NCBI GenBank assembly: GCA_030647775.1
Contig: JAUSJC010000010.1
Span: 6,208-70,207, forward strand
Origin: Candidatus Curtissbacteria bacterium
GTDB taxonomy: Bacteria; Patescibacteriota; Microgenomatia; Curtissbacterales; GWA2-41-24
Length of the DNA stretch: 64,000 nucleotides
Direction: 5' to 3'
Shown: positions 2,249 to 40,988 of the stretch, in pieces
How positions within the stretch are numbered: the first letter of the stretch is position 1
Layout: the number at the start of each line of letters is the position of its first letter
The notes under the pieces: generated by a model
Databases searched by the model: none
The model's input: only the letters and a program-made list of their open reading frames with translations
Told to the model about the DNA's origin: nothing
Made by a program: the position numbers and the translations under genes

Positions 2249-2818
2249 ATGAAGAATTTAATATTTATTATTTTTGCCGCTTTTTTGTTATCACTGTTTT
2301 TACCTGCAAGTTCCTTTGCCGATCAATGTCCTGCCGGATACAAACCAGATGCAGTAGATCTAGAAGGCATAAACACTTCTGTCTGCTCAAAAGATATACC
2401 TCCACCTTGCGATCCGGCCAAAGGAGAAGAAGATTTTTCGTTTACCGGAAGGAACATTTGTGTCGTCTCAACTATTAGCGGCCCGCCTGCACCTGCACCA
2501 CCAGGTCAACCCACCCAAGGCTCAACCAACTCCTTTGATATAAAAACAATCTTCCAACCTGCTAATCTCTTTGGCGATTTCGGCAACCTTTTAAGTTCCA
2601 TCGTCTCAATCCTTATTAGTGCTTCCTTCATAATCACCATTTTCTTTATCATCACAGGCGGCATTAAAATCGTTACCGCTTCCGGCGATATGAAAAAAAT
2701 CCAGGCGGCCCAAGGGACAATCACCTATGCTATTATTGGTTTAGTCGTAACTGTACTGGCTTTTGTCATTTTACAAGTCGTCCAGTACTTTTTCGGCGCC
2801 AATGTCGGAATTCTTTAA
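2249..2818 (+). CDS. VirB2/TrbC-like pilin paralog with an extended Pro-rich N-terminal region (189 aa).
   Basis: Signal peptide. The C-terminal 'ITGGIKIVTASGDMKKIQAAQGTITYAIIGLVV' helix-loop-helix matches its neighbours. Confidence 0.55.
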   Translation: MKNLIFIIFAAFLLSLFLPASSFADQCPAGYKPDAVDLEGINTSVCSKDIPPPCDPAKGEEDFSFTGRNICVVSTISGPPAPAPPGQPTQGSTNSFDIKTIFQPANLFGDFGNLLSSIVSILISASFIITIFFIITGGIKIVTASGDMKKIQAAQGTITYAIIGLVVTVLAFVILQVVQYFFGANVGIL

Positions 2819-3226
2819 ATGAAAAAGTCCGCAATCATTTTTGTTTCACTTTTCACTTTGACTTTGACTCTCAAATCTCCCGCCTTTGCTCAACTCGGCA
2901 CAATCAAACCGCCGGCAGACTTTAAAATCCCAACAGCCGACGCCAATCCTTCCGTGTTTGTCGCTACACTTGTTAGAAACGGCATTACTCTTCTCCTTGT
3001 CGCTTCCTTTGTTATCGCCCTAATCTGGATAATTTTAAACGGCCTGCGTTTTATCCTTGCCCAGGGGGACGAAAAAACTGTCGCCTCTGCCTGGACCCAG
3101 ATTTACTGGACGCTAATTGGTATGGTAATTATCATGGGCTCTTTTGCTATAATCAAAATGGTTGAAACATTTTTTGGTGTGTCAGTGCTATCTGCAGACT
3201 TGAAATTGCCGCATTTACCGCAGTAA
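2819..3226 (+). CDS. VirB2/TrbC-like pilin paralog (135 aa).
   Basis: Signal peptide 'AFA'. 'ILNGLRFILAQGDEKTVASAWTQIYWTLIGMVII' TM-loop-TM. Confidence 0.55.
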   Translation: MKKSAIIFVSLFTLTLTLKSPAFAQLGTIKPPADFKIPTADANPSVFVATLVRNGITLLLVASFVIALIWIILNGLRFILAQGDEKTVASAWTQIYWTLIGMVIIMGSFAIIKMVETFFGVSVLSADLKLPHLPQ

Positions 3227-4049: not shown

Positions 4050-4095
4050 TTATCGGATCTTGGTATACTGATACTAATCAGGTTTCAGTCTGCCG

Positions 4096-6969
4096 ATGAA
4101 AAAACTCGCCGCCGTTTTTCTATTAGTCATCTTCTTTGGCGCTTCGATTATTGCGACCCCTCTCCAGGCAGGCCATAATCTCCCGGGAAGCCCCTACAAA
4201 AATCCAGACCCGGTAAGGGCCCCATATGGTGACCCCCTGTTCACGACCCAACTTACCAAAGTAACTATGAAACCGATTGAGAAGAAGCTCGAGGGTTTTG
4301 GATCAAACGGTCGCTATTCGGAAGCACAACAAGTAACTCTTGCACATACTTTTGATATTCCTGTTAATTTCGCTGAAGTTTCCGCAATATTCGCCAAATC
4401 TAACTCTGATTATCTGGAAGGCAAATTCCAAGACCAGGATCACCAAAACCAAAATCTGGTCAATTCAAACTCACAAAAATTTAATGAATTCTTTGGCCCC
4501 AGCCAAAAGCTTATGCCAAAAATTATGACAGATGAACTCAAGGTTGAATATATCAACTATGTCAAAGATCACGAGAACCTTCCGGAATACAAAACTAAAA
4601 TTACCGATATCGAAGGCAAAAATTCCAAAACCGTTAGTGATCTGGTGTCCCAATTTGGGATACCAGATTCATCAAAAATCGGATCCGATACATGGGGAAA
4701 ATATTGGGCTAAAATTCCGACAGCTTTTTCTCAACCATATTCCGGGTTTATGGTATTTAGAGTTGTTGACGGTAATAAGGAAAATGACCAAATATTAAAA
4801 CAAGGCACTTGCCCTGATAACGAAAACAACGACAGTCGAATGATTGATTTTGTTCTTCCGGAATATTTCCGGACTGCGGCAACCGCCAACGAATTAAATA
4901 AAATAATTCTCCCGAAAGCAGCCCAATCCGCGCAAAAAAACTTTTTAAAGGAGGCCGTTTCCGGTGTTATTAATAACCTCTCGCCGTTCAAAGATTCCGC
5001 TATTTCTAAAACTTTAGAAAAATTCTTAAGAAGAAGCTTCAATAATCTGAACCCTGTCAAAATTGTTTATGCGCAGACATCGGAGGAAGAGTTACCCCCC
5101 GAACTCCCACCAGAACTCCTACCTTACCGGGAACAATGCCATGCGCCAACGGAATTTCAACTAAAAGATAACCCGGGTTCTGGCCCTTTTTACTCTCTCC
5201 CGGAATTATCGGTACTTATCCCTACCCACCCCCCGCAACTCAATCCCCTTGTTTTTACTAAGAGAAAAAATCCCCAGCGCACAAAAGACCCGGTAACCGG
5301 GGAGAGCTGCAACAATATAGATACTCCCCGCAAAATAGACAACGGTAAGTTTGTAAATTGTACTTTTAAAAAAATCTACGAAAGACAGCTTACAATCGCC
5401 ACGCCAGAGGACGCCCAAGCTCTCGGATGGGATTACTGCACAGAAGGTAAAGATTTGGACGGTAATCCAAGTGGTGTTTCTACATGCTACTTAACTGTAA
5501 GAGTTTACCCGATCTTTTACGTTCCATGGCTTTCGTCAATTTGGAACGATACGGTTTACTCGGACAAAAATGATCCGGCTATTATCTCCGGTGCCCAAGA
5601 AACCGGCCGGCCGGGAATCTTCGGTCTATTTACATCCCAAGGGACAGAAAACTTTATATTCCCGGATGGCAAAAATTTGCCTAGCTTAGAAGATGGCTCG
5701 CGCGATATTAAACAACGTTTTATCGGCGCGGTCGATTGCAACAAGGAATTTATCAAAAATTTTGCTCTGTTACCAAAAGCCCTGCAAGGAAATGGCACAA
5801 GCGGGTGCAATCTAAAAACAAGTAATCTGCCCGGAACCCCAGGCGCCTCGGGTACGCTTGATTTCTATGTTAAATATGGCGACACAAGCATTATTCCGAA
5901 AGACCCCGAAGCAATTAAAAAACTCGCCAACAGTTCGTGGCCGGACAACAACACCAACAGATGGGATTATGTTGTGGACAAATGCGCTTCAAATGGTATC
6001 AGCCCCGCTTTCTGCATCGCCATATGGTGGAAAGAAGGTGGTTTTGGCGGCCTGCTCCCGGGAGGAGGCCGCGCCAATAGCGAATTCGGCTGTTTCCCCG
6101 GCGGCAACACCAACCTTAAAGTCAACTTTGAAGATAGTCTAAACTGCTTTGTAAAATTTACCGCCCAGGAACACCCATACAATCCTCAAAACCCTTATGG
6201 CTCATTTTACGATTGGGTTAAATACTTTTGCGGGCCTTTTTCAAAAGGCTTGTGTACACATGACGATGACGTAAGTAAAGAACACCCAAATTTTCTGCCA
6301 GTTTTAGAAAGTGTTTATAATTCTGTTGCGCCCGGCCAAATTATTTTTGTTTCCAACCCCAACCCGGGCAATCCGGGAACCACTCCGGTTCCCATCGCCG
6401 ATGAACTCTTCAACTTCAAAACAGGTGATAAAGACTGGACCGCTCCGGAGAAAGCGGCAATGAGCCAGACCGCAGGGGTTGCGAATAAATCAGCTGTCTG
6501 GAAAACTCTTGTCTTTGCCGCGGGCAAAATCAATCTACGCAGAGGTACCACAGACCCCGAATGCCCGGATACCTGCTCTGGTTTAGCGCAAGATCCAAAC
6601 ACGCTTCTGATTCGCGACCCCTTCTTCGACCACCCGTCAAGAACTCTCTCCGGCCAAGTTTTTATTATGACTCACGAACTCGCCCATATAATTCAATACC
6701 GCAACCCGTCAATCCTCAATCAGTACAAAAGTAGTGAGGCTTACAAAGAGTTCGAAGATAAAGGCGTAATCAGAAGTTATTTCCTCTGTCCCAACGTAAA
6801 ACCCGGACACTTCTGTGCCAACGGGGTGACGGCGGAAAATGAGGACTATGGGGAAATGGCTGGAAATTATGTCGCGGATCGCGATAGCTATCTGGTGGAC
6901 TTCCCCACAGAGTACCCGCAACACTATAAATTCGCCCAAGATGTATTGTTTGGAGGAACAACATTTTAG
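4096..6969 (+). CDS. Large secreted multidomain protein (957 aa) with a C-terminal HEXXH zinc-metallopeptidase-like motif and a possible lysozyme/SLT-like motif.
   Basis: Signal peptide. 'VFIMTHELAHIIQY' (HEXXH) near the C-terminus. 'SPAFCIAIWWKEGGFGG' loosely resembles the SLT catalytic Glu region. Cys-rich. Confidence 0.6.
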   Translation: MKKLAAVFLLVIFFGASIIATPLQAGHNLPGSPYKNPDPVRAPYGDPLFTTQLTKVTMKPIEKKLEGFGSNGRYSEAQQVTLAHTFDIPVNFAEVSAIFAKSNSDYLEGKFQDQDHQNQNLVNSNSQKFNEFFGPSQKLMPKIMTDELKVEYINYVKDHENLPEYKTKITDIEGKNSKTVSDLVSQFGIPDSSKIGSDTWGKYWAKIPTAFSQPYSGFMVFRVVDGNKENDQILKQGTCPDNENNDSRMIDFVLPEYFRTAATANELNKIILPKAAQSAQKNFLKEAVSGVINNLSPFKDSAISKTLEKFLRRSFNNLNPVKIVYAQTSEEELPPELPPELLPYREQCHAPTEFQLKDNPGSGPFYSLPELSVLIPTHPPQLNPLVFTKRKNPQRTKDPVTGESCNNIDTPRKIDNGKFVNCTFKKIYERQLTIATPEDAQALGWDYCTEGKDLDGNPSGVSTCYLTVRVYPIFYVPWLSSIWNDTVYSDKNDPAIISGAQETGRPGIFGLFTSQGTENFIFPDGKNLPSLEDGSRDIKQRFIGAVDCNKEFIKNFALLPKALQGNGTSGCNLKTSNLPGTPGASGTLDFYVKYGDTSIIPKDPEAIKKLANSSWPDNNTNRWDYVVDKCASNGISPAFCIAIWWKEGGFGGLLPGGGRANSEFGCFPGGNTNLKVNFEDSLNCFVKFTAQEHPYNPQNPYGSFYDWVKYFCGPFSKGLCTHDDDVSKEHPNFLPVLESVYNSVAPGQIIFVSNPNPGNPGTTPVPIADELFNFKTGDKDWTAPEKAAMSQTAGVANKSAVWKTLVFAAGKINLRRGTTDPECPDTCSGLAQDPNTLLIRDPFFDHPSRTLSGQVFIMTHELAHIIQYRNPSILNQYKSSEAYKEFEDKGVIRSYFLCPNVKPGHFCANGVTAENEDYGEMAGNYVADRDSYLVDFPTEYPQHYKFAQDVLFGGTTF

Positions 6970-7320: not shown

Positions 7321-7360
7321 CGCGCCAATTTCACGGACTTATCCCTCAAAGCAAGTAGAC

Positions 7361-7450
7361 TGTCATCCTCAACTTGATTGAGGATCAGATTCTCGCAGTT
7401 TACCCTGAAATGGATTCCCGCTTTCGCGGGAATGACAATTGAAGGGCGAG
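7361..7450. repeat. Two adjacent hairpins of the 'GTCATYC-stem-loop-stem-GAATC' REP-like family (family C), in opposite orientations.
   Basis: 'gtcaTCCTCAActtgaTTGAGGAtcagattc' and 'gattcccgctttcgcgggaatgac'. The same frame-and-loop design (loop 'cttga') recurs at 28995. Confidence 0.45.
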
Positions 7451-7701
7451 AATGACACTTGTTGTGAAAGGATAAATACCGATTTCACCATCTTGCTCCC
7501 GGTATCTCCCAATGTTAATCTAAATCTACATTCTTAAGCTCCGAAGTCTGTGACTCGCCCTTCCGTAACTTTACGTGAAGGAGGGAATTCAGACACTGTA
7601 CCGCAACCGTCATAGTCGGGTCGAAGGCTTAAGAAGTAAAAATCAGTCCTCGTGTTAAGGACATGCTTTGGCAAACCTTCTCGAGGCGAGGAGGTTTTTT
7701 G

Positions 7702-8838
7702 ATGGCCGAGCGAACCGCAGTTTTAGATAGACATATACCACCATTCGAAGGATCGCCGATCCCCGAAGCACAGCTTGGCTATAACATCCGCTTTGACCGC
7801 CAGGATTATCAAACCCTCGCATCCCAAAGGCCATATCTTTCTCCCCAAGAATTCCAAAGACGCTCCGATCAGCTAGATCTTCGAACCACACACAACCTCC
7901 AAACAATGCTTGGCGAACGTTTCACCGTCGAAATTTCCAAAGTTGAGTATCATCTTATCTCGGGGCAGCTACAAAACCCAGACCACGACGAACCGTTTTT
8001 AGAAATTATCAAACGCGGCCAAAAATTCCGCCAAGAACATGGCTCAAAAGAAATACCCCGTGAAGCGGCGGAAGCCGAAGGTTTTGCTAAGGTTCAAGAA
8101 ATACTAAATACCAGATATACAGAGCCATGCGATCCTAAAGGGCCTAACCAGATACCAGATATTAAAGTCATCGTTGTCTCCCCGCGCGGCCCGAAAGGCT
8201 CAATTTACCAGCACAATTTTTATGACGTTTACTCCCGAAGTTATGATGGCGCAATTACTATGTCCCGCTATACGTCAAAACTTTCTTACGAAGAATTTTA
8301 TCAATCTGCCCGATCAATCGACCCATTATTGAACCTATCCCAAAACCCTACCGACGCCGAATTTTTGGCAAATCCGCTAATCACCTATCAGTCTTTGGAC
8401 CAAATCCAGAAAATCTTTTGCCCACAAGAAAAAGTGATGACGCAAAAAGAATATCAAATGCTGCTCGAAACGTGCGGGTTTTTATTTACAACCTACATAA
8501 ACTGTCTTATAAATGGCTCACCGTTGGCAGAAATCCAAAAAGTCTATAACACCCTATTAAACTTTGCGGATGTTTGGCCAAATACCGTACCAATGCAAAA
8601 CACGGATCAGATTATTTCTCATTACGGAATACTACCGGTTCGCGTTGTCGCCGCCGGCTGCGGTATTCAAAGCGGCTCGGACTCACAAAATTACTCTTCC
8701 TGGTCTGTCGCCGAATTTGGCAAATGGTTTACGTGTCCTAAATGCAACTACGAAGCAACGGGCCCTGTTGGCAATACTTGCCCTGGCTGTGGATTGACAA
8801 AAGAAGAATTTGCCAAAGAATCCCTCGTTTGCGCCTAA
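7702..8838 (+). CDS. Hypothetical protein with a C-terminal zinc ribbon (CPKCN...CPGCG).
   Basis: ATG at 7702 is preceded by GAGGAGG at optimal spacing; the track's upstream start at 7663 lacks an RBS. C-terminal CxxC-x17-CxxC. Confidence 0.55.
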   Translation: MAERTAVLDRHIPPFEGSPIPEAQLGYNIRFDRQDYQTLASQRPYLSPQEFQRRSDQLDLRTTHNLQTMLGERFTVEISKVEYHLISGQLQNPDHDEPFLEIIKRGQKFRQEHGSKEIPREAAEAEGFAKVQEILNTRYTEPCDPKGPNQIPDIKVIVVSPRGPKGSIYQHNFYDVYSRSYDGAITMSRYTSKLSYEEFYQSARSIDPLLNLSQNPTDAEFLANPLITYQSLDQIQKIFCPQEKVMTQKEYQMLLETCGFLFTTYINCLINGSPLAEIQKVYNTLLNFADVWPNTVPMQNTDQIISHYGILPVRVVAAGCGIQSGSDSQNYSSWSVAEFGKWFTCPKCNYEATGPVGNTCPGCGLTKEEFAKESLVCA

Positions 8839-8880: not shown

Positions 8881-8962
8881 CGGGTTATTGGGCTGTTGGG
8901 ACATTAGGCTATTAGGAAGAGAGCACCTACCTAATCACCCACTAACCTAAAAACCTAATCGG
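8881..8962. repeat. Imperfect palindromic intergenic element, family A (TTGGG/TTAGG half then CCTAA half).
   Basis: 'ttattgggctgttgggacattaggctattagg ... cctaatcacccactaacctaaaaacctaatc'. Related copies at 14841, 15250, 27436 and 29630. Confidence 0.45.
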
Positions 8963-8968
8963 TCTGCA

Positions 8969-10473: not shown

Positions 10474-13400
10474 CTATTTCCCTGAAACCTGCGCGCTGGA
10501 TTGGCTAAAGACCCCTTTAAATAGCGCCCATAAGAAAACTAAAAAGAAAGGCATCAAGTTGCTCGGCTTTTTTAGTTCACTCCCCATCACCCGGATCATT
10601 TCCAGATATTCCTTCAAAGTCCTGATCGGTACTATACCGGGAATCCCAGCAAGCTTTAAATATTTCTCTTTCATTCTCTCCGCGTCCTTGTGGTCTAACC
10701 GGTTTGTAGCGGCAGACACATCAAGTATCTGTTCAATTTCCGCCGAAGGCATATTATATTCACGTCCCCACCAGTCTTTCCAATGCTTGCCCATCTCCTG
10801 ATGCATTGGAACCAGTAACTTCATCCACGGATGCATTCTTATCTCACGGGTTGAATAGAACATCTTACGGTTATTAATGCCCATAAAAGTTTTGGTATCG
10901 GGACTGTTTAAATACGTCTGGCAAGCGTCTGCCGCGAAATACTTCTTCGTTTCTTTTCTGTCTGTCCACCAGTCTCCCATATTGTATTTAATAATATTTG
11001 TTTTCTCATTACTAAAAACCTCGCTCCAGCTAATATTTTGAAAAGTTAACTCCCCGTCATCTACTAACTCCTCGAGTGCAACTCCCCTTACCCAACCCCT
11101 ATCATTGGAATCACCACCCTCCCAGTTATTATCTAAGCTTTTACCGCCATTCCACTTTCCAATGTCGAGCTTACGCCCGTTATCGATATTCTTCATCCTG
11201 TCTGCAACTACATTCGCAAAACGTCTACTGGGGATACCAGGCCTTGCAACAACCAGCTTGTTTGCAATACCAGCATCAACATCATCATCCATTCGCAGCT
11301 TGTCATTGATAAGTTTAATAAGTAAGCGGTTATTGCCCAGTATTCCGCGCCTTCTGCCAAGCATATGTTTCGTTAATATGTAGTTGGCGTCCCTTGGCCT
11401 GCCTCTTACCTCATTTTGTAAAAATTCACCATAATGGTCTACCATCCTGCCAAACCAAACATCCGAATAATTGTTAAAAACAAAAGCCCCAAGCTTTTTT
11501 CTGCTCCTGCCATTATCATCCTTAAACCATTCTCCCTTTTTTTTGTCTCTATCCCATATCCTTATGCCGTCATAATCGGAAAACCCTCCCAATGTCCAAG
11601 TTACGTTGTAACCGTTATTAATAACCTGATCCAAAAGCCCCGCCTGAAGAAATTCGTCAATCTTATCACCCGATAAGCCCATTCCACCCAATCTGGTTTT
11701 AAGCGCATCAAGCAGGTCTTTCTTTCTCGTCCTTAAATAATGATAATCAGGGTCTGTTTCCTTATAACCGTGAGCACCCAGTAAAGTAGTCTCTCGATAC
11801 CAATCCAAAACAACTTTTTCCGCATTGCTAGGTTTAGCCCAGTATTCATTTATTGCATCATCGCTGGCGCCAACCCCAATTTTTTTCTTTACATAACCCT
11901 TTATCTCATCCCTTAATCGATTAAGTTCACCACGATCGACTACTGCCGATTTATCAAAAAGGTTCTTAATCTCTTCCGGCACGGTAACAAAATCTGTAGT
12001 TATATCTACTAAAGTCAGGCCTTCGACAAGATTCATCTGTGCCCTTTCCTTTGAAAACCGCTCAAAATAAACCTTCATCGCAACATCCAGTAAGTTAAAC
12101 TTTTCCGTCTCGTAAACCGGATTTCCACTGGCATCAACAATAGGATTACCAGCGGCATCTTTTTTCTGAATTCGGGAAACGAAATCATCCCCGTTATGAT
12201 CTTGAAAAAACCTGTCGAAAAAGATTTTAAAAGTATCATCCTTCCATAAGTTATTGCCAGCAATCGCTTCAAGCACTTTATCCGGATCCATCGCGTGCCC
12301 CTCCATAGTCAGGCGCAGAGAATAAATCGCAATAACCGCGTCTCTTAATTCATCTATTTTCATTTTCAGCTCCATCGCCTCCTTCTTTTCCTTTCCTGTT
12401 AAAGTTTCAACGGGTATCGCGTCAGAAATTTGGGTGATTACTTGTCTCACCCGACTAACTTCTTCCTGCGTCGAATTACCCGATTCCAACCGCCTGAAAT
12501 TGTTTTGCACATTCTTCATTGAGTCTTGCCAGTCTTTTGGGATACCGTATTCTGACTCTCTAACAATATTCAATCTGACACCCTCAAAAGTCGTCGAGGC
12601 TCTCCATTCCAGAAGCCCTTCAGCCCCCGCCACAGCTGGACGGCTTTTTGCGTACTCATAAAGCTGATAGTCAAAATCAGGCAGATGAATATTACCGATA
12701 CTAAGAGACCCCTCCAACTCTTTAATTTTGATGTCAAGAGGGTTAAAAAGACGCGCCCTTACCCCCGGCCCCAAAGCCTGAGCCCTCCCTCGAAGGGCCT
12801 CATCCATCTCTTTGGATAACTTTTTAAGATCATCTCTTCTAGCTTTGGGTACAATGCTGTCCAAAATTGCTTGTCTCGGGGTCCCTTTTGCTAAAATCTC
12901 ATGAGTTTCAATAGCATTCCCCAAGTTCTTTACAAAACGGTACCCGTCACCTCCAACCGTAGCTAGCCTTCTTGCTTCGATAAATTGGAAATCGAGAACC
13001 TCCCTCCGTGCATCAACAGCATCCACCTGAATTATCGTCAGGGGCCCAATAAGTGAAGTCTTAACGAGTAATTCCTGTATTATCTTCTCCGTAGAACCCA
13101 GCTTGACTAAACGAGCCATAATTCTCCCTTTAGCAACTCCAAACTCAGCATCAAATGCAACAGTGTCAGCCATTATCCTTTGTATGGATTTCAATGTCTC
13201 TAGCTGTAAAAGGTTGTAATCAACCAAGGAGTCCCTGTAGCTTTCATAGTCCATACGTCTCATCTCCATCATGTCTCCCAAACGCTTCTCATAATCTGAA
13301 TAAAAATCTTCAAATTTCCGAAATATTTCAGGCCTATCATCGCTCGAGCCTAACGCTCCACGCATCTCCATATCATCTAATATTCCAAGCCTCCTATGAA

Positions 13401-14598
13401 GCTCTTCAACTTGGTCTGGACCCAAAGCAGCTGTTGTTGCACCGAATACTGTACCCCCTCCGGCAATTGCTGGAACAATCCGCATACCATTCTCCTCCGC
13501 CCAAGCTAACCGCTCATTCCTGCCCATCCCACCCCAAATATCCGGTGTCTCCAAACGCTTATCGACCCCTGCCCCCTTAAAAAATCTATTGATGTCACCA
13601 ACAACATCTTCGCTTTTATAAAGTGGATAATTGACAGCAACATATTTTCCACCTTCTGTTTCGTAAACTTCAGCGTTTGTATTAGGATCAATAAATCTCA
13701 ATTTAAAATCAGGATCAACCTCACCTGCAGGAAAAGCGGTCGTGTTGGATATTCCGCGACTGTTTAATAAATCCATCTTTTTGACTGGATCATCCCTGTC
13801 CCACGTATCGGGAAGTTTTACATTGACCCCTTGCGCTGTCAAGGCCGCCTCCGCAAGCTCCCTGGGCATATTCCATAGATGAGGATACGTTCCGACAATC
13901 TTCGGCCTTTCTCCGGTGGTATCTTCCTCCTTCGCTACTTTTCTTCCCCTATGTATCTCTTCCGCCTCGACGGCACCAACCACAACTCTTTTCCCAACTT
14001 TCTCCCTTGTCAAAGTCTCTTCTTCAAGATCTCTGGCTTTCTCGATCTTCAAACGGGCTAAGTCCTCTTCAACTTTTCTTTCTTTTGTTCCGGCACGGGC
14101 TTCGAAATCCTCATTCGCTGGTTCGGCAATATCCACATCCTCTTCACGCATAACCCCCTGGGCTTCAACCACAATATCGGCAGAGGACATCTTATCGACT
14201 TCTTCAAGCATATATCCCCTTTCCAAAAGAATGTCCTTAAGCCGCTTAAATTTCTCGTAAGGAACCGCAACTTGCCCATCGCCATCCCTCAACTCTGCTA
14301 GAATTTCTGCAGCCGCTTTTGCATCTTTAAACGGTAATTTTACTGGTTGTTTGTTTGGGGTTGGCTTTTCGTCCGACTTATAAGTTGCCGGTTTGGATTC
14401 TCCCCCCTGTCGACTTTTTTCTTCTTCGCTTTGCCTAGGAGATTTTTTGGCTCCCTTTTTATCGGCCTCCTTTTTGCCCTCATCTGTTCTCCTTTTCTTC
14501 TCGTTATCCAAACGGCGCTGCTCTCTTTTTTGTTCCTCGTCTCTTCCTGGGGTTTCTTCTGGCATATTCATATTATATCCAAAACTTGCTTCCGACAT
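10474..14598 (-). CDS. Giant orphan protein (~1374 aa) with a Lys/Glu/Arg-rich low-complexity N-terminus and a hydrophobic C-terminal tail. No recognisable catalytic motif.
   Basis: Single uninterrupted frame. ATG at 14598 is preceded by AAGGAAG; the track start at 14631 is a GTG. No Walker A or relaxase HxH motifs seen. Confidence 0.6.
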   Translation of the reverse strand: MSEASFGYNMNMPEETPGRDEEQKREQRRLDNEKKRRTDEGKKEADKKGAKKSPRQSEEEKSRQGGESKPATYKSDEKPTPNKQPVKLPFKDAKAAAEILAELRDGDGQVAVPYEKFKRLKDILLERGYMLEEVDKMSSADIVVEAQGVMREEDVDIAEPANEDFEARAGTKERKVEEDLARLKIEKARDLEEETLTREKVGKRVVVGAVEAEEIHRGRKVAKEEDTTGERPKIVGTYPHLWNMPRELAEAALTAQGVNVKLPDTWDRDDPVKKMDLLNSRGISNTTAFPAGEVDPDFKLRFIDPNTNAEVYETEGGKYVAVNYPLYKSEDVVGDINRFFKGAGVDKRLETPDIWGGMGRNERLAWAEENGMRIVPAIAGGGTVFGATTAALGPDQVEELHRRLGILDDMEMRGALGSSDDRPEIFRKFEDFYSDYEKRLGDMMEMRRMDYESYRDSLVDYNLLQLETLKSIQRIMADTVAFDAEFGVAKGRIMARLVKLGSTEKIIQELLVKTSLIGPLTIIQVDAVDARREVLDFQFIEARRLATVGGDGYRFVKNLGNAIETHEILAKGTPRQAILDSIVPKARRDDLKKLSKEMDEALRGRAQALGPGVRARLFNPLDIKIKELEGSLSIGNIHLPDFDYQLYEYAKSRPAVAGAEGLLEWRASTTFEGVRLNIVRESEYGIPKDWQDSMKNVQNNFRRLESGNSTQEEVSRVRQVITQISDAIPVETLTGKEKKEAMELKMKIDELRDAVIAIYSLRLTMEGHAMDPDKVLEAIAGNNLWKDDTFKIFFDRFFQDHNGDDFVSRIQKKDAAGNPIVDASGNPVYETEKFNLLDVAMKVYFERFSKERAQMNLVEGLTLVDITTDFVTVPEEIKNLFDKSAVVDRGELNRLRDEIKGYVKKKIGVGASDDAINEYWAKPSNAEKVVLDWYRETTLLGAHGYKETDPDYHYLRTRKKDLLDALKTRLGGMGLSGDKIDEFLQAGLLDQVINNGYNVTWTLGGFSDYDGIRIWDRDKKKGEWFKDDNGRSRKKLGAFVFNNYSDVWFGRMVDHYGEFLQNEVRGRPRDANYILTKHMLGRRRGILGNNRLLIKLINDKLRMDDDVDAGIANKLVVARPGIPSRRFANVVADRMKNIDNGRKLDIGKWNGGKSLDNNWEGGDSNDRGWVRGVALEELVDDGELTFQNISWSEVFSNEKTNIIKYNMGDWWTDRKETKKYFAADACQTYLNSPDTKTFMGINNRKMFYSTREIRMHPWMKLLVPMHQEMGKHWKDWWGREYNMPSAEIEQILDVSAATNRLDHKDAERMKEKYLKLAGIPGIVPIRTLKEYLEMIRVMGSELKKPSNLMPFFLVFLWALFKGVFSQSSAQVSGK

Positions 14599-14840
14599 AC
14601 AATCTTCCTTTCTATCGCCAATTATAATCACCTACCCTATAGTTGCTTGACTTTAACCTGACAGCCAATCTGACAATTTTGTCAGACGCTAAAAGCTAAA
14701 CGACAAACGACTAAGACAAGATAAAAATCAGTATTAATTTTCATGGTCAGTGTGAAAATCTGGGCCTATTTTGAGGCTAGATATTTCCACTTCTCTGCTC
14801 TTGTTTCATATGTTATGGTAACTTTGGTGACAAAGTTACC

Positions 14841-14913
14841 AGGCTATTGGGTACTTAGGTAATTAGGTTATTGGGAGACTAACCAAACAACCCAAAGACC
14901 TAAAAGCCTAATC
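14841..14913. repeat. Family A palindromic element immediately upstream of the four-helix-bundle gene.
   Basis: 'ggctattgggtacttaggtaattaggttattggg agact aaccaaacaacccaaagacctaaaagcctaatcgcc'. Confidence 0.45.
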
Positions 14914-14925
14914 GCCATTTCAAAA

Positions 14926-15318
14926 ATGGGTGATTTTACAAAACTTATTATTTGGCAAAAAGCTCACGATCTAACAATTAAGGTCTACGCTTTAACAAAA
15001 AAGCTACCTAAAACCGAAGATTATAGCTTGAAATCGCAATTGAGACGAGCTGCAGTCTCCTGTGAGTCAAACATTGCCGAAGGAGAAACCAGATACACTG
15101 ACGCAGCAAAAATCAACTTCTTTGTAGATTCAAGGTCATCCGGTGCAGAAGTTCAAAGTCAGTTGATGATTATGCGTGACGTTTATCCAGAATTATCAGA
15201 AGAATCCGAAGCATTACGTTTGGAATACGAAGATTTTTGCAAACAAACCAACAGCCTAATTTCGTTTAGAAGAAAATCTAACCTAATATCCCAAAATCCA
15301 AAAAACCTAACAGCCTAA
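14926..15318 (+). CDS. Four-helix-bundle protein (family formerly called 23S rRNA intervening-sequence protein).
   Basis: 'IWQKAHDLTIKVYALTKKLPKTEDYSLKSQLRRAAVSCESNIAEGE' matches the TIGR02436-type signature. Its 3' end is built from a family-A CCTAA half-repeat. Confidence 0.75.
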   Translation: MGDFTKLIIWQKAHDLTIKVYALTKKLPKTEDYSLKSQLRRAAVSCESNIAEGETRYTDAAKINFFVDSRSSGAEVQSQLMIMRDVYPELSEESEALRLEYEDFCKQTNSLISFRRKSNLISQNPKNLTA

Positions 15319-16826
15319 TGAACCAACACCCTGTCCCGCAGCATATCGCCTCTTTCGAATTTAAGCTTTTTGGCAACCTTACCATCCGCCAATTTGTCGC
15401 TCTTTCCATTCCAATGTCTGTTGCCGCCCTTATTTTCTTTTCCCCGGGCCCAACCATCATCCGCTTTCCATTTTCCATCTTCTTCGCCGGCCTCGGCCTG
15501 TTTGCCGCTCTTGTCCCGGTCCAGGGACGCCCTTTTGATAAATGGGTCGTTGCCTTCACGAGGGCCATCCTTTCACCAACCCAAAGGGTTTGGGTTAAAG
15601 AAGCCAAAATCCCGCAGTTTTTAAATATCATCATAAACCAGCCCAAACACCCCAATGAGCCCCCCCAACCCATTACCTTTCAGGACCGCCAAAGGCTTTC
15701 CCAGTACTTGAGATCACTCCCCAAATCCACAGTTTCGCCTCTGGATGTTAGAGAACAGCAGGCCATCGAAAAGCTCGGCCTCGTTCCTCCGGTGCAGGGC
15801 TTGCCCTCCGAAGCTTTAGCGAAGGAGGGCAAACTTCCCCCTTCAATCCTTTGGACAACTGCCGGCCCCAAGACCAAACAGGCGTTCGTCCAAACTACCG
15901 AACCGATCTTGGAAGAACGGTTCCAGGGAATTATGCCCCAAGCCTTACCCCAAATAACTCCGCTTGGAAAACCGGCAACCGCCGTTAGAATCAGCCCCCA
16001 CGCTAAACCGTATGCCCTGCCCGGCCTGGAAAAAAGGCTCGCCGAAAAACAAATTCTCGTTTCCCCCACGCTTCAGCTGGCTTCAAACACCAACTTTTCT
16101 ATTGAAAACATCATTCCTATCCCCGGCAAACATGTCAGGCTTCTGCACGGTCTTACCAAAAGCCGCACGCGAAAACTCCATTTTGCCCCGCCGAAGAATT
16201 TCAATCTTGCCAATCTGCCGGTGCGCGGCGAAGCAAGATTCGAAGTCTCCGAAGAATTGAAAAAACGCTTCCAATTTAATGAACCGGCACTCCAGCCTAT
16301 ACCCCAAGCCCAAGAAACCCCGGTGCAAACACCGAAAATCGAAGTTGAACCGCAACGCGCGTCCGCTCACCAGGCGCCAAGGCCGCCGAAACAAAATCAA
16401 TTTGTTCCCAGACCGCAAACAGCTCACTTCACTGCCCAAAACGCCACGCTAAAACAGGAAGAATCCGAACGTGCAGATTCGCAAATGACCATTCGGGGCC
16501 AAAAGGTTGACGGCACCAAATCTGCTTCTATTTTAGAAAGGGCCCGTATTATCCCTTTAACAAACACCCCCAATGTTCTCTCCGGCTTGGTTTCCGATGC
16601 CGCCGGTATTCCTCTTGAAGGCGCAATCATTACTGTCCGCGACCAAAGCGGCATACCGGTTCGCGCCTTAAAAACCAATAAGCTTGGCCAGTTTCTTTCA
16701 ACAACTCCTCTTATAAGCGGCGTTTATTCTTTGGAAATTGAGCACACAAACGCCCGTTTTGAACCAATCACCATTAATCTTATCGGCAACATTGTGGTAC
16801 CACTGGAGATTAAAGCCAAAGGATGA
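15318..16826 (+). CDS. PrgI-like (VirB3-analogous) T4SS membrane protein with a ~380-aa C-terminal extension.
   Basis: N-terminal 'FEFKLFGNLTIRQFVALSIPMSVAALIFF ... FFAGLGLFAALVPVQGRPFDKWV' gives two TM helices typical of the PrgI family. Lies just upstream of virB4. Confidence 0.5.
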   Translation: MNQHPVPQHIASFEFKLFGNLTIRQFVALSIPMSVAALIFFSPGPTIIRFPFSIFFAGLGLFAALVPVQGRPFDKWVVAFTRAILSPTQRVWVKEAKIPQFLNIIINQPKHPNEPPQPITFQDRQRLSQYLRSLPKSTVSPLDVREQQAIEKLGLVPPVQGLPSEALAKEGKLPPSILWTTAGPKTKQAFVQTTEPILEERFQGIMPQALPQITPLGKPATAVRISPHAKPYALPGLEKRLAEKQILVSPTLQLASNTNFSIENIIPIPGKHVRLLHGLTKSRTRKLHFAPPKNFNLANLPVRGEARFEVSEELKKRFQFNEPALQPIPQAQETPVQTPKIEVEPQRASAHQAPRPPKQNQFVPRPQTAHFTAQNATLKQEESERADSQMTIRGQKVDGTKSASILERARIIPLTNTPNVLSGLVSDAAGIPLEGAIITVRDQSGIPVRALKTNKLGQFLSTTPLISGVYSLEIEHTNARFEPITINLIGNIVVPLEIKAKG

Positions 16827-17803
16827 AAATCATGTCACAAACTCCTAAAACTAAAGCTTCAACCCAACAGCACCTTGATGTCGAAGATATCACCGAAGAC
16901 TTGGTCATTTTAAAAACCGGCTGGGTGGCCATGGTCATGTCGACAACTGCCATCAATTTCGACCTTCTTTCTGAAGCCGAACAAGACGCTACAATCTATG
17001 CTTTCGGCGCCTTTTTGAATTCGCTCACTTTCCCGCTTGAAGTATTAATTAGAAGTAAAAAAGCCGACATTACCTCTTACTTCCAAAGCCTTGAGGAAGC
17101 CCAGCGCATTCAGCCTAACCCTGATCTTAAAAGGCAAATCCAAAAATATCAGGAGTTTATTCAGGCAACCGTCCAGCAAAAAACAGTTTTGGATAAAAGG
17201 TTCTATTTAATCATTAATTATTCCCCGCTTGGGCCCGAGTTTAAAGGCTTCGGCAAAAATAGCCAAAACCCAAAGAGTAAGGCCCAGCTTATCCAAACTG
17301 CCAAAAGCGCTCTTTCCCCGAAGCGCGACCATGTTATCAAACAAACCGCCAGGCTTGGTATTAATACCCGCCAGCTCATGTCGCAGGAATTGATCGAACT
17401 TTTTTATGATATTTATAACCCGGCCCCAACCGGCACTCAAAGGGTTATTTTGGATGCCGCCTCGTACACTACCCCGCTGGTAGAACCGGCAATCGCCAAC
17501 CCCACGCCGGCATCAGGGCCGGCTGTCGAACAGGAACTTACCAATATTAATAGACCGCAAGCAGGTGAAATAGTAACTCAGCAGGAAACAAATCTGCGAC
17601 CCGTACCGCCAGCCTCGACGCCCGCTTCGACGCGAGGCGAGCTAGGCGGGTCAGCCTCGGCTCAAGGCGGGCCGCCTCCGACGCAGGCTCCACCTGTACC
17701 CCAGCCGGCACAATATGTCACCGCTGCACCGACCCAAGCCGAGCCGCAAGCCGTGGCCCCAAACCCTAACCCAATTCAGGAAACTGGAGGTAACAACCAA
17801 TGA
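16823..17803 (+). CDS. Hypothetical T4SS-associated protein with a Pro/Ala-rich C-terminus, translationally coupled to virB4.
   Basis: ATGA overlaps at both ends. No TM segment. Sits between the PrgI-like gene and virB4. Confidence 0.5.
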   Translation: MKIMSQTPKTKASTQQHLDVEDITEDLVILKTGWVAMVMSTTAINFDLLSEAEQDATIYAFGAFLNSLTFPLEVLIRSKKADITSYFQSLEEAQRIQPNPDLKRQIQKYQEFIQATVQQKTVLDKRFYLIINYSPLGPEFKGFGKNSQNPKSKAQLIQTAKSALSPKRDHVIKQTARLGINTRQLMSQELIELFYDIYNPAPTGTQRVILDAASYTTPLVEPAIANPTPASGPAVEQELTNINRPQAGEIVTQQETNLRPVPPASTPASTRGELGGSASAQGGPPPTQAPPVPQPAQYVTAAPTQAEPQAVAPNPNPIQETGGNNQ

Positions 17804-19620
17804 AGTTTTTCCCTGATATCTTTGGTAAAAAACCGCAAGCCGCCGCCAATCTTTCCGATCAGGAAAGCGGCTGGGCCCAAACGCTGGCAACCGGATCGGT
17901 TTCAGTCCAGGATATCATCGCCCCTCCGGCCATAGAAGTTGATTTCGATTTCATTAAAATCGGCGCCTATTATTACCGCACCCTTTTTGTCATCGGCTAC
18001 CCCCGGTTTGTCGAGGCAAACTGGCTCTCCCCCTTAATTAACTTTGAGCACACATTGGAAATTGCTCTCTACTCTTATCCGGTCGAGGCCAAAGGCGTCC
18101 TTGACGACTTAAAGCGCAAAATGACCGAAATGGAGGCAACCATTGCTACCGATATCCAGCACGGGCACCTAATCGACCCGGCTGTCCAGGCTGCGCTAGA
18201 AGATGCCCAGATGCTTCAGGAAGAACTGGTCAAAGGCGCCGAAAGGTTCTTTCAGTTTGGCCTTTATGTCACTGTCCCGGCACAATCCAAAGAAGAACTC
18301 GATGAAGTCACCAAGCAAGTCGAATCAACGCTTGGCTCCCTGCTTCTTGTCCCAAAACACGCCTCACTGCAGCAGGAAGATGCTTTTAAAACCACCCTCC
18401 CGCAAGGTACCGACCACATTTATATCACCAGGAATATGGATACCACTTCCCTGGCCACAACTTTCCCTTTTGTCTCCTCATCGCTAACCTCCAATTCCGG
18501 CATCATGTACGGCATCAATGAGCATAACGGCTCATTGGTAATTTTCGACCGTTTTAGCCAGGAAAACGCCAATTCCGTAATCTTTGCCAAATCCGGCGCC
18601 GGCAAATCTTATCTGGTTAAACTCGAAGCCCTCCGTTCCCTCATGTTTGGCACCGAAGTCATTGTCATCGACCCCGAAGAAGAATATAAAACCCTTTGCC
18701 AGGCAATCGGCGGCGAGTTAATCAGCTTTAACTTCTCATCTGAAGCCAAAATCAACCCTTTCGACCTTTCCGGAATCTATGAAGAAGGCGAAAACGAACT
18801 GGGCTTAAAAATCCTTTCCCTCCACGGGCTTTTTAAAATAATCATGGGCAATCTTACCCCTTCGGAAGATGCCCTCCTTGACCGTGCGCTGGTTGCCACC
18901 TATAAAGCCAAAGGCATCACCCCCGATCCGGCTACCCAGCAAAACGAACCGCCTTTGATGGAAGACCTCTATAAAGTTTTAATTGGTATGGAAGAGTCAA
19001 CCGCCAAGGGCCTTGCCGACAGGATTGAAAGATTCGTTAAGGGCTCACTAGTTGGCATCTTCAACCAGCAAAGCAATATCGATATCAAAAATACCTTCAC
19101 CGTTTTTTCGATTAAAGACCTGGAAAACGAACTTCGCCCCATTGCTATGTACTTAATTTTGGATTTCATCTGGACCAAGGTCAAAAATGATATCAGGAAA
19201 CGGCTTCTAATAGTCGACGAGGCCTGGTACTTAATGCAGTATCCGGACAGCGCTTCATTTATGTACGGCATCGCCAAACGCGCCAGAAAGTATTACCTTG
19301 GCTTAACGACAATCACCCAGGATGTCGAAGATTTTCTAACCACCGACTACGGCCGCGCTATCGTTACCAACTCAAGTATCCAGATTCTTCTTAAACAATC
19401 CCCGGCGGCCATCGACCAGGTCGCCGATACTTTTTACCTTTCCGAGGGCGAAAAGCATCTTCTCCTTTCTGCCGATATTGGGGAAGGCATCTTTTTTGCC
19501 GGCCCCAACCATGTTGCCATCAGGATTGTGGCTTCAGACGATGAGCATGCCCTCGTAACCACTAATCCAAAGGAACTCCAGGAGATGGCCAAAGCCCAAG
19601 AACTCCAAAAGCAATTTTAA
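17800..19620 (+). CDS. virB4: VirB4/TrbE-family T4SS ATPase (606 aa, short Gram-positive/CPR type).
   Basis: Walker A 'IFAKSGAGKSYLV' and Walker B 'RLLIVDEAWYLM'. N-terminal 'IEVDFDFIKIGAYYYRTLFVIGYPRFVEANWL' resembles the VirB4 N-domain. Confidence 0.8.
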   Translation: MKFFPDIFGKKPQAAANLSDQESGWAQTLATGSVSVQDIIAPPAIEVDFDFIKIGAYYYRTLFVIGYPRFVEANWLSPLINFEHTLEIALYSYPVEAKGVLDDLKRKMTEMEATIATDIQHGHLIDPAVQAALEDAQMLQEELVKGAERFFQFGLYVTVPAQSKEELDEVTKQVESTLGSLLLVPKHASLQQEDAFKTTLPQGTDHIYITRNMDTTSLATTFPFVSSSLTSNSGIMYGINEHNGSLVIFDRFSQENANSVIFAKSGAGKSYLVKLEALRSLMFGTEVIVIDPEEEYKTLCQAIGGELISFNFSSEAKINPFDLSGIYEEGENELGLKILSLHGLFKIIMGNLTPSEDALLDRALVATYKAKGITPDPATQQNEPPLMEDLYKVLIGMEESTAKGLADRIERFVKGSLVGIFNQQSNIDIKNTFTVFSIKDLENELRPIAMYLILDFIWTKVKNDIRKRLLIVDEAWYLMQYPDSASFMYGIAKRARKYYLGLTTITQDVEDFLTTDYGRAIVTNSSIQILLKQSPAAIDQVADTFYLSEGEKHLLLSADIGEGIFFAGPNHVAIRIVASDDEHALVTTNPKELQEMAKAQELQKQF

Positions 19621-19624
19621 AATC

Positions 19625-19715
19625 GCTAAACGCTAATCGACTAAAGACTAACGCAAACATTAACCCTTCGTCGTTAGTCGTTCGCCTGCCTTGCCGGCAG
19701 GCAGGTCGTTCGTCA
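19625..19715. repeat. Family B element: GACTAAAGACTAACG arms around a 'gcctgccttgccggcaggcagg' palindrome.
   Basis: A 36-nt core is identical to 40943-40978. Related arms at 53644 and 57843. Confidence 0.5.
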
Positions 19716-24086: not shown

Positions 24087-24159
24087 ACCCCTAGTATAGG
24101 GGAATAAATACCAATTTCAAATGTCAAATTTCAAATAATTGGATATTGGAAATTAGAAA

Positions 24160-24182
24160 TTGGAAATTCCAGAGCTTTAGCT
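24160..24182 (-). terminator. Hairpin overlapping the dnaN stop, followed on the minus strand by tandem AATTTCC heptamers.
   Basis: 'tccagagctttagctctgga'. No canonical U-tract, so weak. Confidence 0.3.
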
Positions 24183-27012: not shown

Positions 27013-27552
27013 GATAATAGTACCTTTCTAAAAAGTATTGTGCAGGCTGTAAGTCCTAGTCTGTCGGCAGGCAGAGTAGGATTGAAAATCCTGGTCCGTG
27101 GCAGACGGAGAAGGGCGAAAGTCCTAAGTGCAGTCAAAGGGCTTGCCGGGGGCTGAATCCGGGTAGAGCGAAGATCTAATTCACCCCGCTTAGCGGGGCG
27201 AGGGATCAATTTTTCGAGAACTTGAAAATAAGCTCTCTTCTTTTTGGCTCGCAAACTATATTTGCAAAACTTTTCCACAATTGTCAAGCAGTCAAAAATT
27301 TTGTTGAAAACTAAATATTTTACTGCGCAGACCCCGTCAATTCGCTCCTTGAGCCGTGTATGAATAATACTGAAAAGGCGAAAGGTAAGAATGAGTGGGG
27401 TCAAGGACGCAAAATTATTGTGGATAACCCTCTTTGGGCTATTAGGAATTTAGGCAGTTGGGTTATTAAGGATGAAACTAAATCTTGCTAAAATCCCCGG
27501 TTTCCTGATATCCTAATGGCCTAATAACCCAAAAACCTAATAACCTAATCAT
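27013..27552. promoter_or_regulatory. dnaA upstream / rpmH upstream region with DnaA boxes (oriC candidate) and a GC-rich structured segment.
   Basis: Perfect box TGTGGATAA (27419-27427, reverse complement of TTATCCACA). One-mismatch 'ttttccaca' (27271-27279). Followed by a family-A element (27436-27550). Confidence 0.5.
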
Positions 27553-33208: not shown

Positions 33209-33642
33209 CAAGTGGTAAACGATCAACAATGAACGATGAACCAATAACTATTTTTACCGACGGCGGTTCCCGCGGTAATCCCGGCCAAGCTGCTTATGGC
33301 TTTGTCGTCAAGACAGGTGGTAAAAACGTCAAAGAGGCCGGCGGCATACTCGGCGTTGCAACCAACAACTTTGCCGAGTATACTGCCGTCATTCGCGCCC
33401 TTGAATACGCTAAAGAGAAATTTGCGGGTCGCGACATCAAGTTTTATATGGATTCGAACCTTGTCGCTTCCCAGCTTTCCGGCCTTTTCAAAATCAAAAA
33501 TGCCGTCATTCGCGAACTCGTCTTTAAAGTCCGCCAGCTCGAATCAAGCTTCGGTCAGATCACCTACACCCATGTGCCCAGAGAAAAAAATAAAGAGGCC
33601 GATGCCCAGGTGAACCTTGCCCTTGATCAGGACTTAAGATAA
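33205..33642 (+). CDS. rnhA: Ribonuclease HI.
   Basis: 'ITIFTDGGSRGNPGQAAYGFVV', 'FAEYTAVIRALEYA', 'YMDSNLV', 'HVPREKNKEADAQVNLAL'. Confidence 0.8.
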   Translation: MTSGKRSTMNDEPITIFTDGGSRGNPGQAAYGFVVKTGGKNVKEAGGILGVATNNFAEYTAVIRALEYAKEKFAGRDIKFYMDSNLVASQLSGLFKIKNAVIRELVFKVRQLESSFGQITYTHVPREKNKEADAQVNLALDQDLR

Positions 33643-40892: not shown

Positions 40893-40988
40893 AAGACTAA
40901 AGTCTAACGACTAACGTCGAAAATTATTATAACAACAACATTAGTCTTTAGTCGTTCGCCTGCCTTGCCGGCAGGCAGGTCGTTAGTC
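40893..40988. repeat. Family B element (GACTAAAGTCTAACGACTAACG ... palindrome 'gcctgccttgccggcaggcagg').
   Basis: Core identical to 19684-19705. Sits between a convergent/divergent gene pair. Confidence 0.5.

Follow-up and report, generated by a model that had tools for sequence, protein, structure and literature searches.

Genes for S23p proteins, which are four-helix-bundle (4HB) proteins, are carried by intervening sequences (IVSs) in the 23S rRNA of Leptospira, Coxiella burnetii, Brucella and Xanthomonas. The family to which they belong is very large and, to our knowledge, has been left without an assigned function since 1993. In Coxiella, RNase III cuts the terminal stem of the IVS, the S23p ATG directly follows two or three GACAGAT heptamers, the Shine-Dalgarno (SD) sequence is poor, and the open reading frame (ORF) of the IVS was long ago suggested to serve mobility (PMC4990558). 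Insertions in the 16S and 23S rRNA genes of the candidate phyla radiation (CPR) encode a further 22 ORFs of family PF05635 (PMC11270868, Table S4). Heptamer arrays have been described elsewhere in genomes, with 70-75 convergent array pairs reported for Xanthomonas (PMC4692102), and have been treated as G-quadruplex or regulatory elements, with S23/4HB genes unmentioned (PMC4692102, PMC4679880). The protein family, its association with IVSs, and heptamer arrays, inverted pairs included, are therefore already known. Here we describe a 4HB gene framed by such arrays in a protein-coding locus of a 64,000-nucleotide stretch of DNA from Candidatus Curtissbacteria, of the CPR (Microgenomates; contig JAUSJC010000010.1), referred to as the window. 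We consider that positions 14841-15317 are probably an IVS-type cassette, of a kind that resides in mRNA leaders and spacers and whose arms form a closing stem.

The gene itself (14926-15318, + strand) encodes a protein of 130 aa, which the initial annotation of the window, made from its letters alone, had placed in the 4HB family of 23S rRNA IVSs. This assignment holds, as the matches to PF05635 23S_rRNA_IVP (E 1.1e-28; 99.9 bits, cut-off 33.8) and to TIGR02436 'four helix bundle protein' (E 1.8e-28; 98.9 bits, cut-off 24) both exceed the curated cut-offs. It is the only 4HB gene in the 64-kb window (tblastn). An AlphaFold model (AF2, monomer, 16 relatives) with a predicted local distance difference test (pLDDT) score of 87 has helices at residues 8-24, 35-55, 59-86 and 88-122, and its fold is a four-helix bundle, S23-like as in 2GSC and 2RLD. 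These two are the nearest solved structures by Foldseek (2GSC, XCC0516, TM 0.82/0.91; 2RLD, BT_0352, TM 0.74/0.88), and a phmmer search likewise matches 2GSC (3.6e-12). Next come structures of Avd, a protein of diversity-generating retroelements (DGRs; 4DWL and 8UB7, TM 0.6-0.8), to which the sequence relation is distant: PHROG Avd matches at 1.8e-5, and DGR Avd models score weakly, at 21 bits against a cut-off of 80. The 2GSC protein is a pentamer (PMC4990558), and, judged from its sequence, the protein of the window belongs to the pentameric S23p/Avd-like family and is kept by selection. Among orthologues with unsaturated synonymous divergence (dS), the ratio of nonsynonymous to synonymous change (dN/dS) is 0.08-0.11, so that the ORF is under purifying selection at a dN/dS of about 0.1. 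Its isoelectric point (pI) is 7.7, or 6.6 for the core; it is thus not basic, which is mild evidence against a nucleic-acid-binding role. The protein matched nothing in a phage database and 0 families among the PADLOC anti-phage defence models, and from one query the family comprises 12,673 clusters at 50% identity.

Each arm around the gene is built of 8-nt units, nnTTRGGn on the left and the complement nCCYAAnn on the right. The left arm, L (14841-14875, +), contains about 4.5 units (AGGCTATT GGGTACTT AGGTAATT AGGTTATT GGG), and the first right arm, R1 (14883-14913, +; CCAAACAA CCCAAAGA CCTAAAAG CCTAATCG), forms a local hairpin with the inner part of L. Short tandem units thereby stand directly upstream of the 4HB ORF (14841-14913), a feature of the IVS type (compare the Azospirillum IVS L049, below, and PMC4990558). 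The second right arm, R2 (15278-15319, +; CTAACCTAATATCCCAAAATCCAAAAAACCTAACAGCCTAAT), comprises five CCYAA units and encodes the C-terminal tail of the 4HB protein (residues ~118-130, NLISQNPKNLTA, pLDDT 46) together with its stop, the last unit providing a TAA that overlaps the ATG of the next gene, prgI, by one base (TAATG). The full palindrome that had been noted directly upstream of the gene, at 14841-14913, is borne out: L and R1 are 71% complementary over 34 nt around a 7-nt loop, and their RNA fold (-28 kcal/mol, z -5.1 versus shuffles) consists of 6-7 bp helices with 2x2 internal loops every 8 nt. The half-repeat that had been placed at the 3' end, at 15250-15318, is real for 15278-15319 only; the first ~28 nt of the stretch given (15250-15277) are normal, conserved coding sequence for helix 4, so that its start had been drawn too early by that much. 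Alignment of the flanking repeats gave 76% identity between R2 and R1 and 73% complementarity between R2 and L over 37 nt. Being terminal inverted repeats, L and R2 could enclose the ORF in a stem, and they form the closing stem in the minimum free energy fold of the whole-cassette RNA (14812-15335; -128 kcal/mol, z -4.3), where the initial 11 nt of L are paired to the final 11 nt of R2 and inner L pairs with R1. The unit pair TTAGGNNATTAGG, with one mismatch allowed, occurs 14 times in the window versus 1.3 expected (about 10-fold; 0 of 100 shuffles reach 14), and all 14 occurrences are confined to 8882-8959, 14841-15319 and 27434-27549; we call this unit family A.

As the initial annotation had it, the 4HB gene sits in a protein-coding locus, and we place it between a promoter-like block and the start of prgI; no rRNA was found in the window (Rfam), and the location is accordingly not a ribosomal one. 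The cassette occupies the 5' leader of an operon resembling those of type IV secretion systems (T4SS), downstream of the promoter-like block and in the operon's direction. The operon opens with a PrgI-family gene (15318-16826, +); TraC-like (16823-17803) and VirB4-like (17800-19620) genes come next. The promoter-like block (14751-14819, +; TGTGAAAA ... TTTTGAGGCT ... TTGTTTCATATGTTATGGT) belongs to the host operon and not to the cassette, its columns being invariant across seven orthologous loci that include an empty site (L051; alignment A3); a consensus sigma-70 scan did not call it, and its promoter function is putative. At the start of the leader, just 5' of the cassette, lies a small perfect hairpin (14816-14841, +; TGGTAACTTTG / CAAAGTTACCA; 11-nt arms, 100% complementary), whose structure is kept with altered sequence in L002, L004, L011, L014, L028, L053 and L054.

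Comparison of this site among relatives (loci labelled L0xx, with the paired labels L051/L055, L054/L057 and L053/L056 for the close ones) gives precise boundaries to the cassette. The synteny of the prgI operon is shared by L002, L004, L011, L014, L028 and L051-L057, and a search with PrgI yielded nearer relatives than did the search with the 4HB protein: over the first 500 residues of VirB4, identity to the window is 97.2% for L051/L055, 96.6% for L054/L057 and 94.4% for L053/L056, against just 81-84% for the genomes that share the window's 4HB subfamily. Alignments A3 and A4 show that all close relatives keep two landmarks, the promoter-like block and the start of prgI. In L051, 20 nt separate TATGGT from the prgI ATG, with no cassette and no residual hairpin of any kind, where the window has the small hairpin followed by L-R1-ORF-R2. 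The indel against L051 is 14841-15317; it begins at the outer edge of L and stops at the base that precedes the prgI ATG, and its left (14840/14841) and right (15317/15318) boundaries coincide with the ends of the arms. The initial annotation had given nearly this very interval. At the same site, L053 and L054 carry a 4HB gene whose product is only 34-39% identical to that of the window, with 7-nt GACNAAC arms, and in L051/L055 a third kind of 4HB gene, with TAATTG-type arms, occupies the divergent gene's leader, and so lies upstream and on the opposite strand. The ORF divergent from the prgI operon in the window (10474-14631, -; 1385 aa, highly charged N-terminal region, no Pfam match) is conserved, at 1077-1125 aa, and divergent in all close relatives. 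Distant relatives, by comparison, carry the window's own 4HB subfamily at the prgI site, at 72-73% identity and with saturated synonymous sites. Since dS between orthologues is saturated and dN/dS, where measurable, is 0.08-0.11, the cassette is old at the prgI site and its protein selected. By the simplest history, the cassette would have been present in the ancestor, lost from one near lineage and replaced in another, and it may also have been re-acquired at this site.

In order to learn how general the arrangement is, we compared 22 non-identical 4HB loci of Microgenomates-type (CPR) genomes, obtained from protein and locus searches (a narrower alignment scan of the genome collection returned 8 loci). 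All 22 have an array of 7-8-nt units that either ends 0-15 nt before the start codon or is followed by an extra right arm, and all 22 have a complementary array at or just after the 4HB stop. When the flanks of start and stop were compared, their best complementarity over 24 nt had a median of 18.5 for the 4HB genes and a mean of 14.7 for 148 other ORFs that were taken from these loci as controls (Mann-Whitney p=4e-12). The initial annotation had named two observations that would point to association by chance, namely 4HB copies that lack the flanking repeat and repeats that occur without cargo at similar frequency. The former was found at none of the 22 loci; the latter is literally the case in the window, where cargo-less hairpins outnumber the cargo-bearing one, yet the association is still far from chance. 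That generic hairpins, resembling repetitive extragenic palindromic (REP) sequences and acting as terminators or mRNA stabilisers, merely happen to surround an ordinary 4HB gene is in keeping with the abundance of short-period hairpins and arrays in the spacers of the window (at least eight hairpins, of about four unit families, of which one contains a gene, the 4HB), and with the 6 of 148 control genes that also score >=18/24. We nevertheless regard such a chance neighbourhood as very improbable, given that flanking arrays accompany every non-identical 4HB locus analysed, that the arms match each other specifically, that indel boundaries coincide with arm ends, and that other phyla, as well as rRNA, show the pattern again.

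The specificity of the arms is seen most clearly in their variation. Unit sequences differ among cassettes (TTAGG, TCAGG, CTAGG, GTGGG, GGATAGT, GTTCACAG, GACTAAC and TAATTG), and of 32 loci, 19 have their own R arm as the best partner of the left arm, among them every one of the 13 that fall outside the window's subfamily (p<1e-4 by permutation, within the window's subfamily too). Where two 4HB subfamilies occur in one genome (L004, L013, L014 and L016) they have different arms; because subfamilies differ in their arms within one genome, as they do at one site, the arms travel with the ORF and not with the site or the genome. The insertion contexts are equally varied and include, beside the prgI leader, the atpG/atpD and dnaN/dciA spacers, positions after def and after a tRNA, and the interior of cas operons. 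In the atpG/atpD cassettes, the right arm is now read as an extension at the N-terminus of AtpD (e.g. MAKTKSKKPDSPKAPKPDHL...; L005 6353-6420, L013, L022, L025 and L038), and in L053/L054 the left arm encodes the N-terminus of the 4HB protein. Because arms are translated variously as the tail of the 4HB protein, as its N-terminus or as an extension of a neighbour, they are features of the nucleic acid. A decayed cassette was seen after def in L019 (5001-5300), its 4HB frame broken (70 aa, then out of frame) and its arms retained (TTAGG units / AAACCCAA x4). Other accounts of the arms were tried and rejected: a G-quadruplex role of the G-rich L arm, since the units of other cassettes (GTTCACAG, GACTAAC, TAATTG, AATTTCC) lack runs of G; DGR-like adenine mutagenesis of unit positions, since the variable positions are not consistently A on one strand; and rapid variation in arm copy number, since identical ORFs from different samples have identical arms.

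Two anatomies recur among the cassettes, a basic L-ORF-R, found in about half of the loci, and the L-R1-ORF-R2 of the window. In the basic form, 0-15 nt separate the L arm from the ATG, and no SD-like element is present other than the final AGG of that arm. This arrangement would suit an autoregulatory circuit in which an oligomer of the 4HB protein binds the arm units at its own ribosome-binding region and perhaps sets the translation of the downstream host gene, as would the overlap of the 4HB stop with the prgI ATG, and repeated units would suit an oligomeric binder such as the 2GSC pentamer (PMC4990558). However, in L-R1-ORF-R2 loci, the window among them, the ATG is preceded by R1, in which there is no SD; arms may also be translated or lie within neighbouring genes, as at the atpD N-terminus, and the pI of the protein is near neutral. 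We judge autoregulation unlikely; it would be compatible with an IVS-type cassette and is not exclusive of it.

The same framing is found in other phyla. A tblastn search of plasmids returned 34 records, of which 10 were analysed. Inverted arrays of 7-8-nt units flank plasmid 4HB genes of Picosynechococcus, Nostoc, Geminocystis, Leptolyngbya, Calothrix and Riemerella (the Nostoc gene L043, for example, lies between GTCAGGA and TCCTGAC arrays), and the L-R1-ORF-R2 variant occurs in plasmids of Pseudanabaena and Gemmatirosa, so that framed 4HB genes outside the CPR extend to Cyanobacteria, Bacteroidota and Gemmatimonadota. One of the plasmid loci links these cassettes directly to ribosomal IVSs. 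In the Azospirillum lipoferum plasmid AZO_p2 (L049), the 4HB gene lies within a 23S rRNA (Rfam large-subunit model, 1029 bits) and is a genuine IVS, with a closing stem of ~35 bp made of heptamer units (GACGGAT GACAGAG ... / ... TCTGTCA TCCGTCT) around the ORF. The parallel that the initial annotation had drawn with rRNA IVSs is in this way confirmed, a 4HB ORF being closed by inverted heptamer arrays in L049 and the Coxiella IVS being similar; because both show a like build, the cassette of the window shares the architecture of rRNA IVSs while residing in an mRNA leader. Two of the plasmid cassettes, both with long heptamer arrays, lie in cas operons (L042, Picosynechococcus, cas10/cmr3; L044, Pseudanabaena, cas6/cas4). 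A '23S rRNA IVP' has been listed as CRISPR-associated in large screens (PMC10910872), and such a location, or arrays called as CRISPRs, may explain the listing.

Hairpins without cargo accompany the cassette in the window. One of family A (8882-8959, +; L 8882-8916, R 8930-8959) lies upstream of the ORF that starts at 8969 and has no counterpart in L055, whose orthologous spacer measures 53 nt as against 130 nt, nor in the orthologous spacers of L056 and L057. At that site, with the window's hairpin just upstream, L055 has adjacent tandem arrays at 4516-4574 (AGCGTTA units, then CCCTTATTGCTTAT units) within the 5' end of its ORF 4489-6078. The other family-A hairpin (27434-27549, +; 32-nt loop, z -5.1) lies between a DnaA-box-like site and the rpmH ATG (27553), where L055 holds unrelated sequence; because the DnaA-box-like TTGTGGATAAC directly precedes it, this hairpin stands at the edge of a probable replication origin. 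The preceding part of the dnaA(-)/rpmH(+) spacer (27013-27430) contains a GC-rich block (~27040-27230) that is apparently conserved and has no Rfam match at E<=1. In the close relatives L055, L056 and L057, 14-21 kb of syntenic DNA contain no family-A unit pair, bar one chance match. Hairpins of other unit families occur as well. One of the GACTAAC type follows the virB4-like gene (19621-19700, +), with further copies at 40894-40961 and 57845-57927, and its unit type is that of the arms of the L053/L054 cassette at the prgI site. Another with 7-nt units (24105-24170, -; GGAATTT CCAATTT ... / TTTGAAA ...) lies in the dnaN/dciA spacer, where L004 has arms with a 116-aa 4HB gene (2760-3165), L002 a bare hairpin of nearly the same unit as L004 (GTTAAC versus GTTCAC), and L055 a spacer of just 19 nt. 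No remnants of a 4HB ORF were recognisable in the loops of the cargo-less hairpins (e.g. 27472-27503), and either loss of the ORF or independent spread could leave cargo-less hairpins that share a unit family.

Occupied and unoccupied hairpins at one orthologous site (L004 versus L002 and the window) recall the exchange of integron cassettes. By a Campbell-type mechanism, a circular molecule of ORF plus R would recombine into the R arm of an existing L-R hairpin to give L-R1-ORF-R2, and R1/R2 excision would restore the bare hairpin. Such a route would account for the presence of different cassettes at one site, for the recurrence of L-R1-ORF-R2 in CPR, Cyanobacteria and Gemmatimonadota, and for the greater or equal similarity of R1 and R2 to each other than of either to L in 6 of 8 loci. 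That excess is small, however (18-21 versus 16-20 of 24), about half of all loci are simple L-ORF-R, the empty site of L051 lacks a residual hairpin, and no integrase or recombinase was found near any cassette examined (CPR and plasmid loci), all of which makes recombination of this type improbable in our view.

The dispersal of bare family-A hairpins also invites comparison with REPINs, which are formed by REP sequences, and their REP-associated tyrosine transposases (RAYTs). Here the 4HB protein would recognise, maintain or spread hairpins of its own unit family in trans, the family-A-flanked gene being the 'master' and 8882-8959 and 27434-27549 its non-autonomous derivatives. The repeat family that flanks the gene is indeed dispersed without cargo in the genome, arm type tracks 4HB subfamily, and a homologue, Avd, serves the DGR ribonucleoprotein as its RNA-binding partner (Foldseek 4DWL, 8UB7). 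Three close relatives, moreover, lack both the family-A 4HB gene and family-A hairpins in their syntenic DNA, although this co-absence rests on one genome versus three. Set against these points, nuclease or recombinase chemistry is unreported for any 4HB protein, the Avd models remain below their cut-off, the protein of the window is not basic, and at least four further hairpin unit families of the window have no matching 4HB gene inside the 64 kb. We therefore hold action in trans to be a rather doubtful prospect.

The reading that we prefer, an IVS-type cassette housed in an mRNA leader, would work as follows. The cassette would be transcribed together with the prgI/T4SS-like operon; in the transcript, outer L would pair with R2 and close the cassette, and inner L would pair with R1. 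The resulting double-stranded stem would be of the kind that RNase III cuts in rRNA IVSs, and the insertion would either fold aside or be cut out, so that the host RNA stays functional. The 4HB protein might act in the maintenance or spread of the element, or have a host function. Cassettes of this kind are gained, lost and replaced at shared sites. The initial annotation had called the locus a small mobile cassette, and to that extent it was right: L to R2 behaves as a single unit that is gained, lost and replaced; the mobility itself has no counterpart in any mechanism, transposase or target duplication that we could see.

Several observations weigh against this reading. We know of RNase III cleavage for rRNA IVSs only. 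Target-site duplications are not clear at any of the three family-A indels, the cassette being flanked by TTACC and ATG without duplication, and among the 40 window ORFs scanned there is no reverse transcriptase (RT), RNase III (rnc), integrase or transposase, the closest RT-related match being an RNase H / RVT_3 domain at 33205-33642. That the ORF is strongly constrained by purifying selection and has long been inherited vertically would suit a selfish element no better than a useful host gene. The stems of the arms are much less perfect than those of IVSs, with 6-7 bp blocks, 2x2 loops and ~70-76% complementarity. In a comparison of the strands of 15 hairpins, the sense fold was the more stable in 7 and the antisense fold in 8; sense and antisense are thus equally stable, and these folds show no G-U versus A-C asymmetry that would indicate selection on RNA rather than DNA. 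Long-range duplex energies, compared to the same end, are confounded by R1 and by large loops. Finally, one Nostoc plasmid copy (L046) has direct-oriented arrays only, and the plasmid 4HB gene of L041 is opposite in direction to both of its neighbours.

Further repeats and signals were noted in the window. Tandem arrays without an obvious inverted partner occur within the 5' part of a tsaD-like ORF (TGACACC x4, 44687-44728), just upstream of groES at 53359 (8-nt units, 53315-53357) and after ORF 57828-58700 (AAATTGA units, 58698-58733). In the T4SS-like cluster, the start codons of several genes are preceded, at a distance of a few bases, by a recurrent motif, GTTTCAGTCTGCC with variants (window 4083-4095 and 8960-8968; L055 578-591 and 4476-4488; spacers of L056 and L057), which may be a shared translation or regulatory signal. 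A palindromic element (gtcatcctc...gaggatc ... cccgctttcgcgggaatgacaa) at 7330-7450 resembles L004 5735-5790, upstream of the 4HB promoter region there, and belongs to a repeat family unrelated to the short-period hairpins. Upstream of the hypothetical ORF 7663-8838, a stretch at 7518-7668 (+) gives a sub-threshold match to the adenosylcobalamin (AdoCbl, B12) riboswitch model RF01482 (29.8 bits against a gathering threshold of 50, E 0.0011), and its sequence is conserved in L055 (2935-3160) and L056 (3148-3365).

Taken together, these comparisons show that the IVS architecture is not specific to rRNA and is instead a general packaging of 4HB genes in mRNA leaders and spacers across phyla, with occupied, differently occupied and empty states among near relatives and with bare hairpins of like unit type accompanying the cassette. 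In an incomplete search of the literature, which leaves room for an earlier description, we found no paper on hairpin-framed 4HB genes outside rRNA, nor one on the turnover of cassettes at orthologous sites or on their link to bare repeat hairpins. Two puzzles, the function of the 4HB family and the equally unexplained heptamer/octamer hairpins, become one testable system. As a speculation to which we give a low probability, S23p/4HB proteins might be the missing partner of tandem-repeat hairpins at large (the short tandemly repeated repetitive, STRR, sequences, GGGAATC, TAACTGA and the CPR octamers), with each subfamily propagating its own unit. If so, spread could proceed through a symbiosis like that of REPINs and RAYTs or through an Avd-like ribonucleoprotein using a host reverse transcriptase, and rRNA IVSs would be merely the first-noticed landing sites of this class of element.

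Of the systems already described, 23S rRNA IVSs are the most similar to the cassette. They share its protein family, an ORF in the loop of a stem of terminal inverted repeats, short tandem units that precede the ATG and compose the arms (the IVS heptamers GACAGAT / GACGGAT), an ORF that reads in the same sense as the host transcript, an SD that is weak or missing, and presence/absence polymorphism. They differ in that the host RNA of the window is an mRNA leader or intergenic spacer and not helix 25 or 45 of 23S rRNA, and in that the stem of the window is more mismatched, with 2x2 loops at a periodicity of 8 nt, and has the extra inner arm R1; moreover, the ORF of the Coxiella IVS is reported to be decaying, whereas that of the window is clearly under purifying selection. 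REP/REPIN-RAYT systems have in common with the cassette a single gene flanked, in inverted orientation, by a palindromic repeat family that is also dispersed cargo-less in intergenic regions, and hairpins that are indels between close relatives. The gene here, however, encodes a 4HB protein where RAYT genes encode a Y1 (IS200/IS605-like) transposase, the repeats consist of 7-8-nt units in tandem rather than of 20-40-bp REPs with a GTAG/CGTC head, and a genome can contain several paralogous 4HB genes that each have a unit type of their own. The heptamer and octamer repeats compared (cyanobacterial STRR, Xanthomonas GGGAATC, Nostoc GGGGAYT and Beggiatoaceae TAACTGA) are likewise intergenic arrays of 7-nt units, often in convergent, inverted pairs, but in the window such arrays are the arms of a gene cassette. 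Avd acts as a pentamer bound to RNA and reverse transcriptase and shares the fold, with a distant sequence relation; the window has neither an RT nor a template/variable repeat pair, Avd models score below their cut-off, and the protein is not basic. Finally, like miniature inverted-repeat transposable elements and integron cassettes, the element is small, non-autonomous-looking, bounded by inverted repeats, exchangeable at one site and provided with an imperfect palindrome at its end, but it has no target-site duplication, transposase, IntI or attI/attC cores, and its arms are arrays of tandem units.

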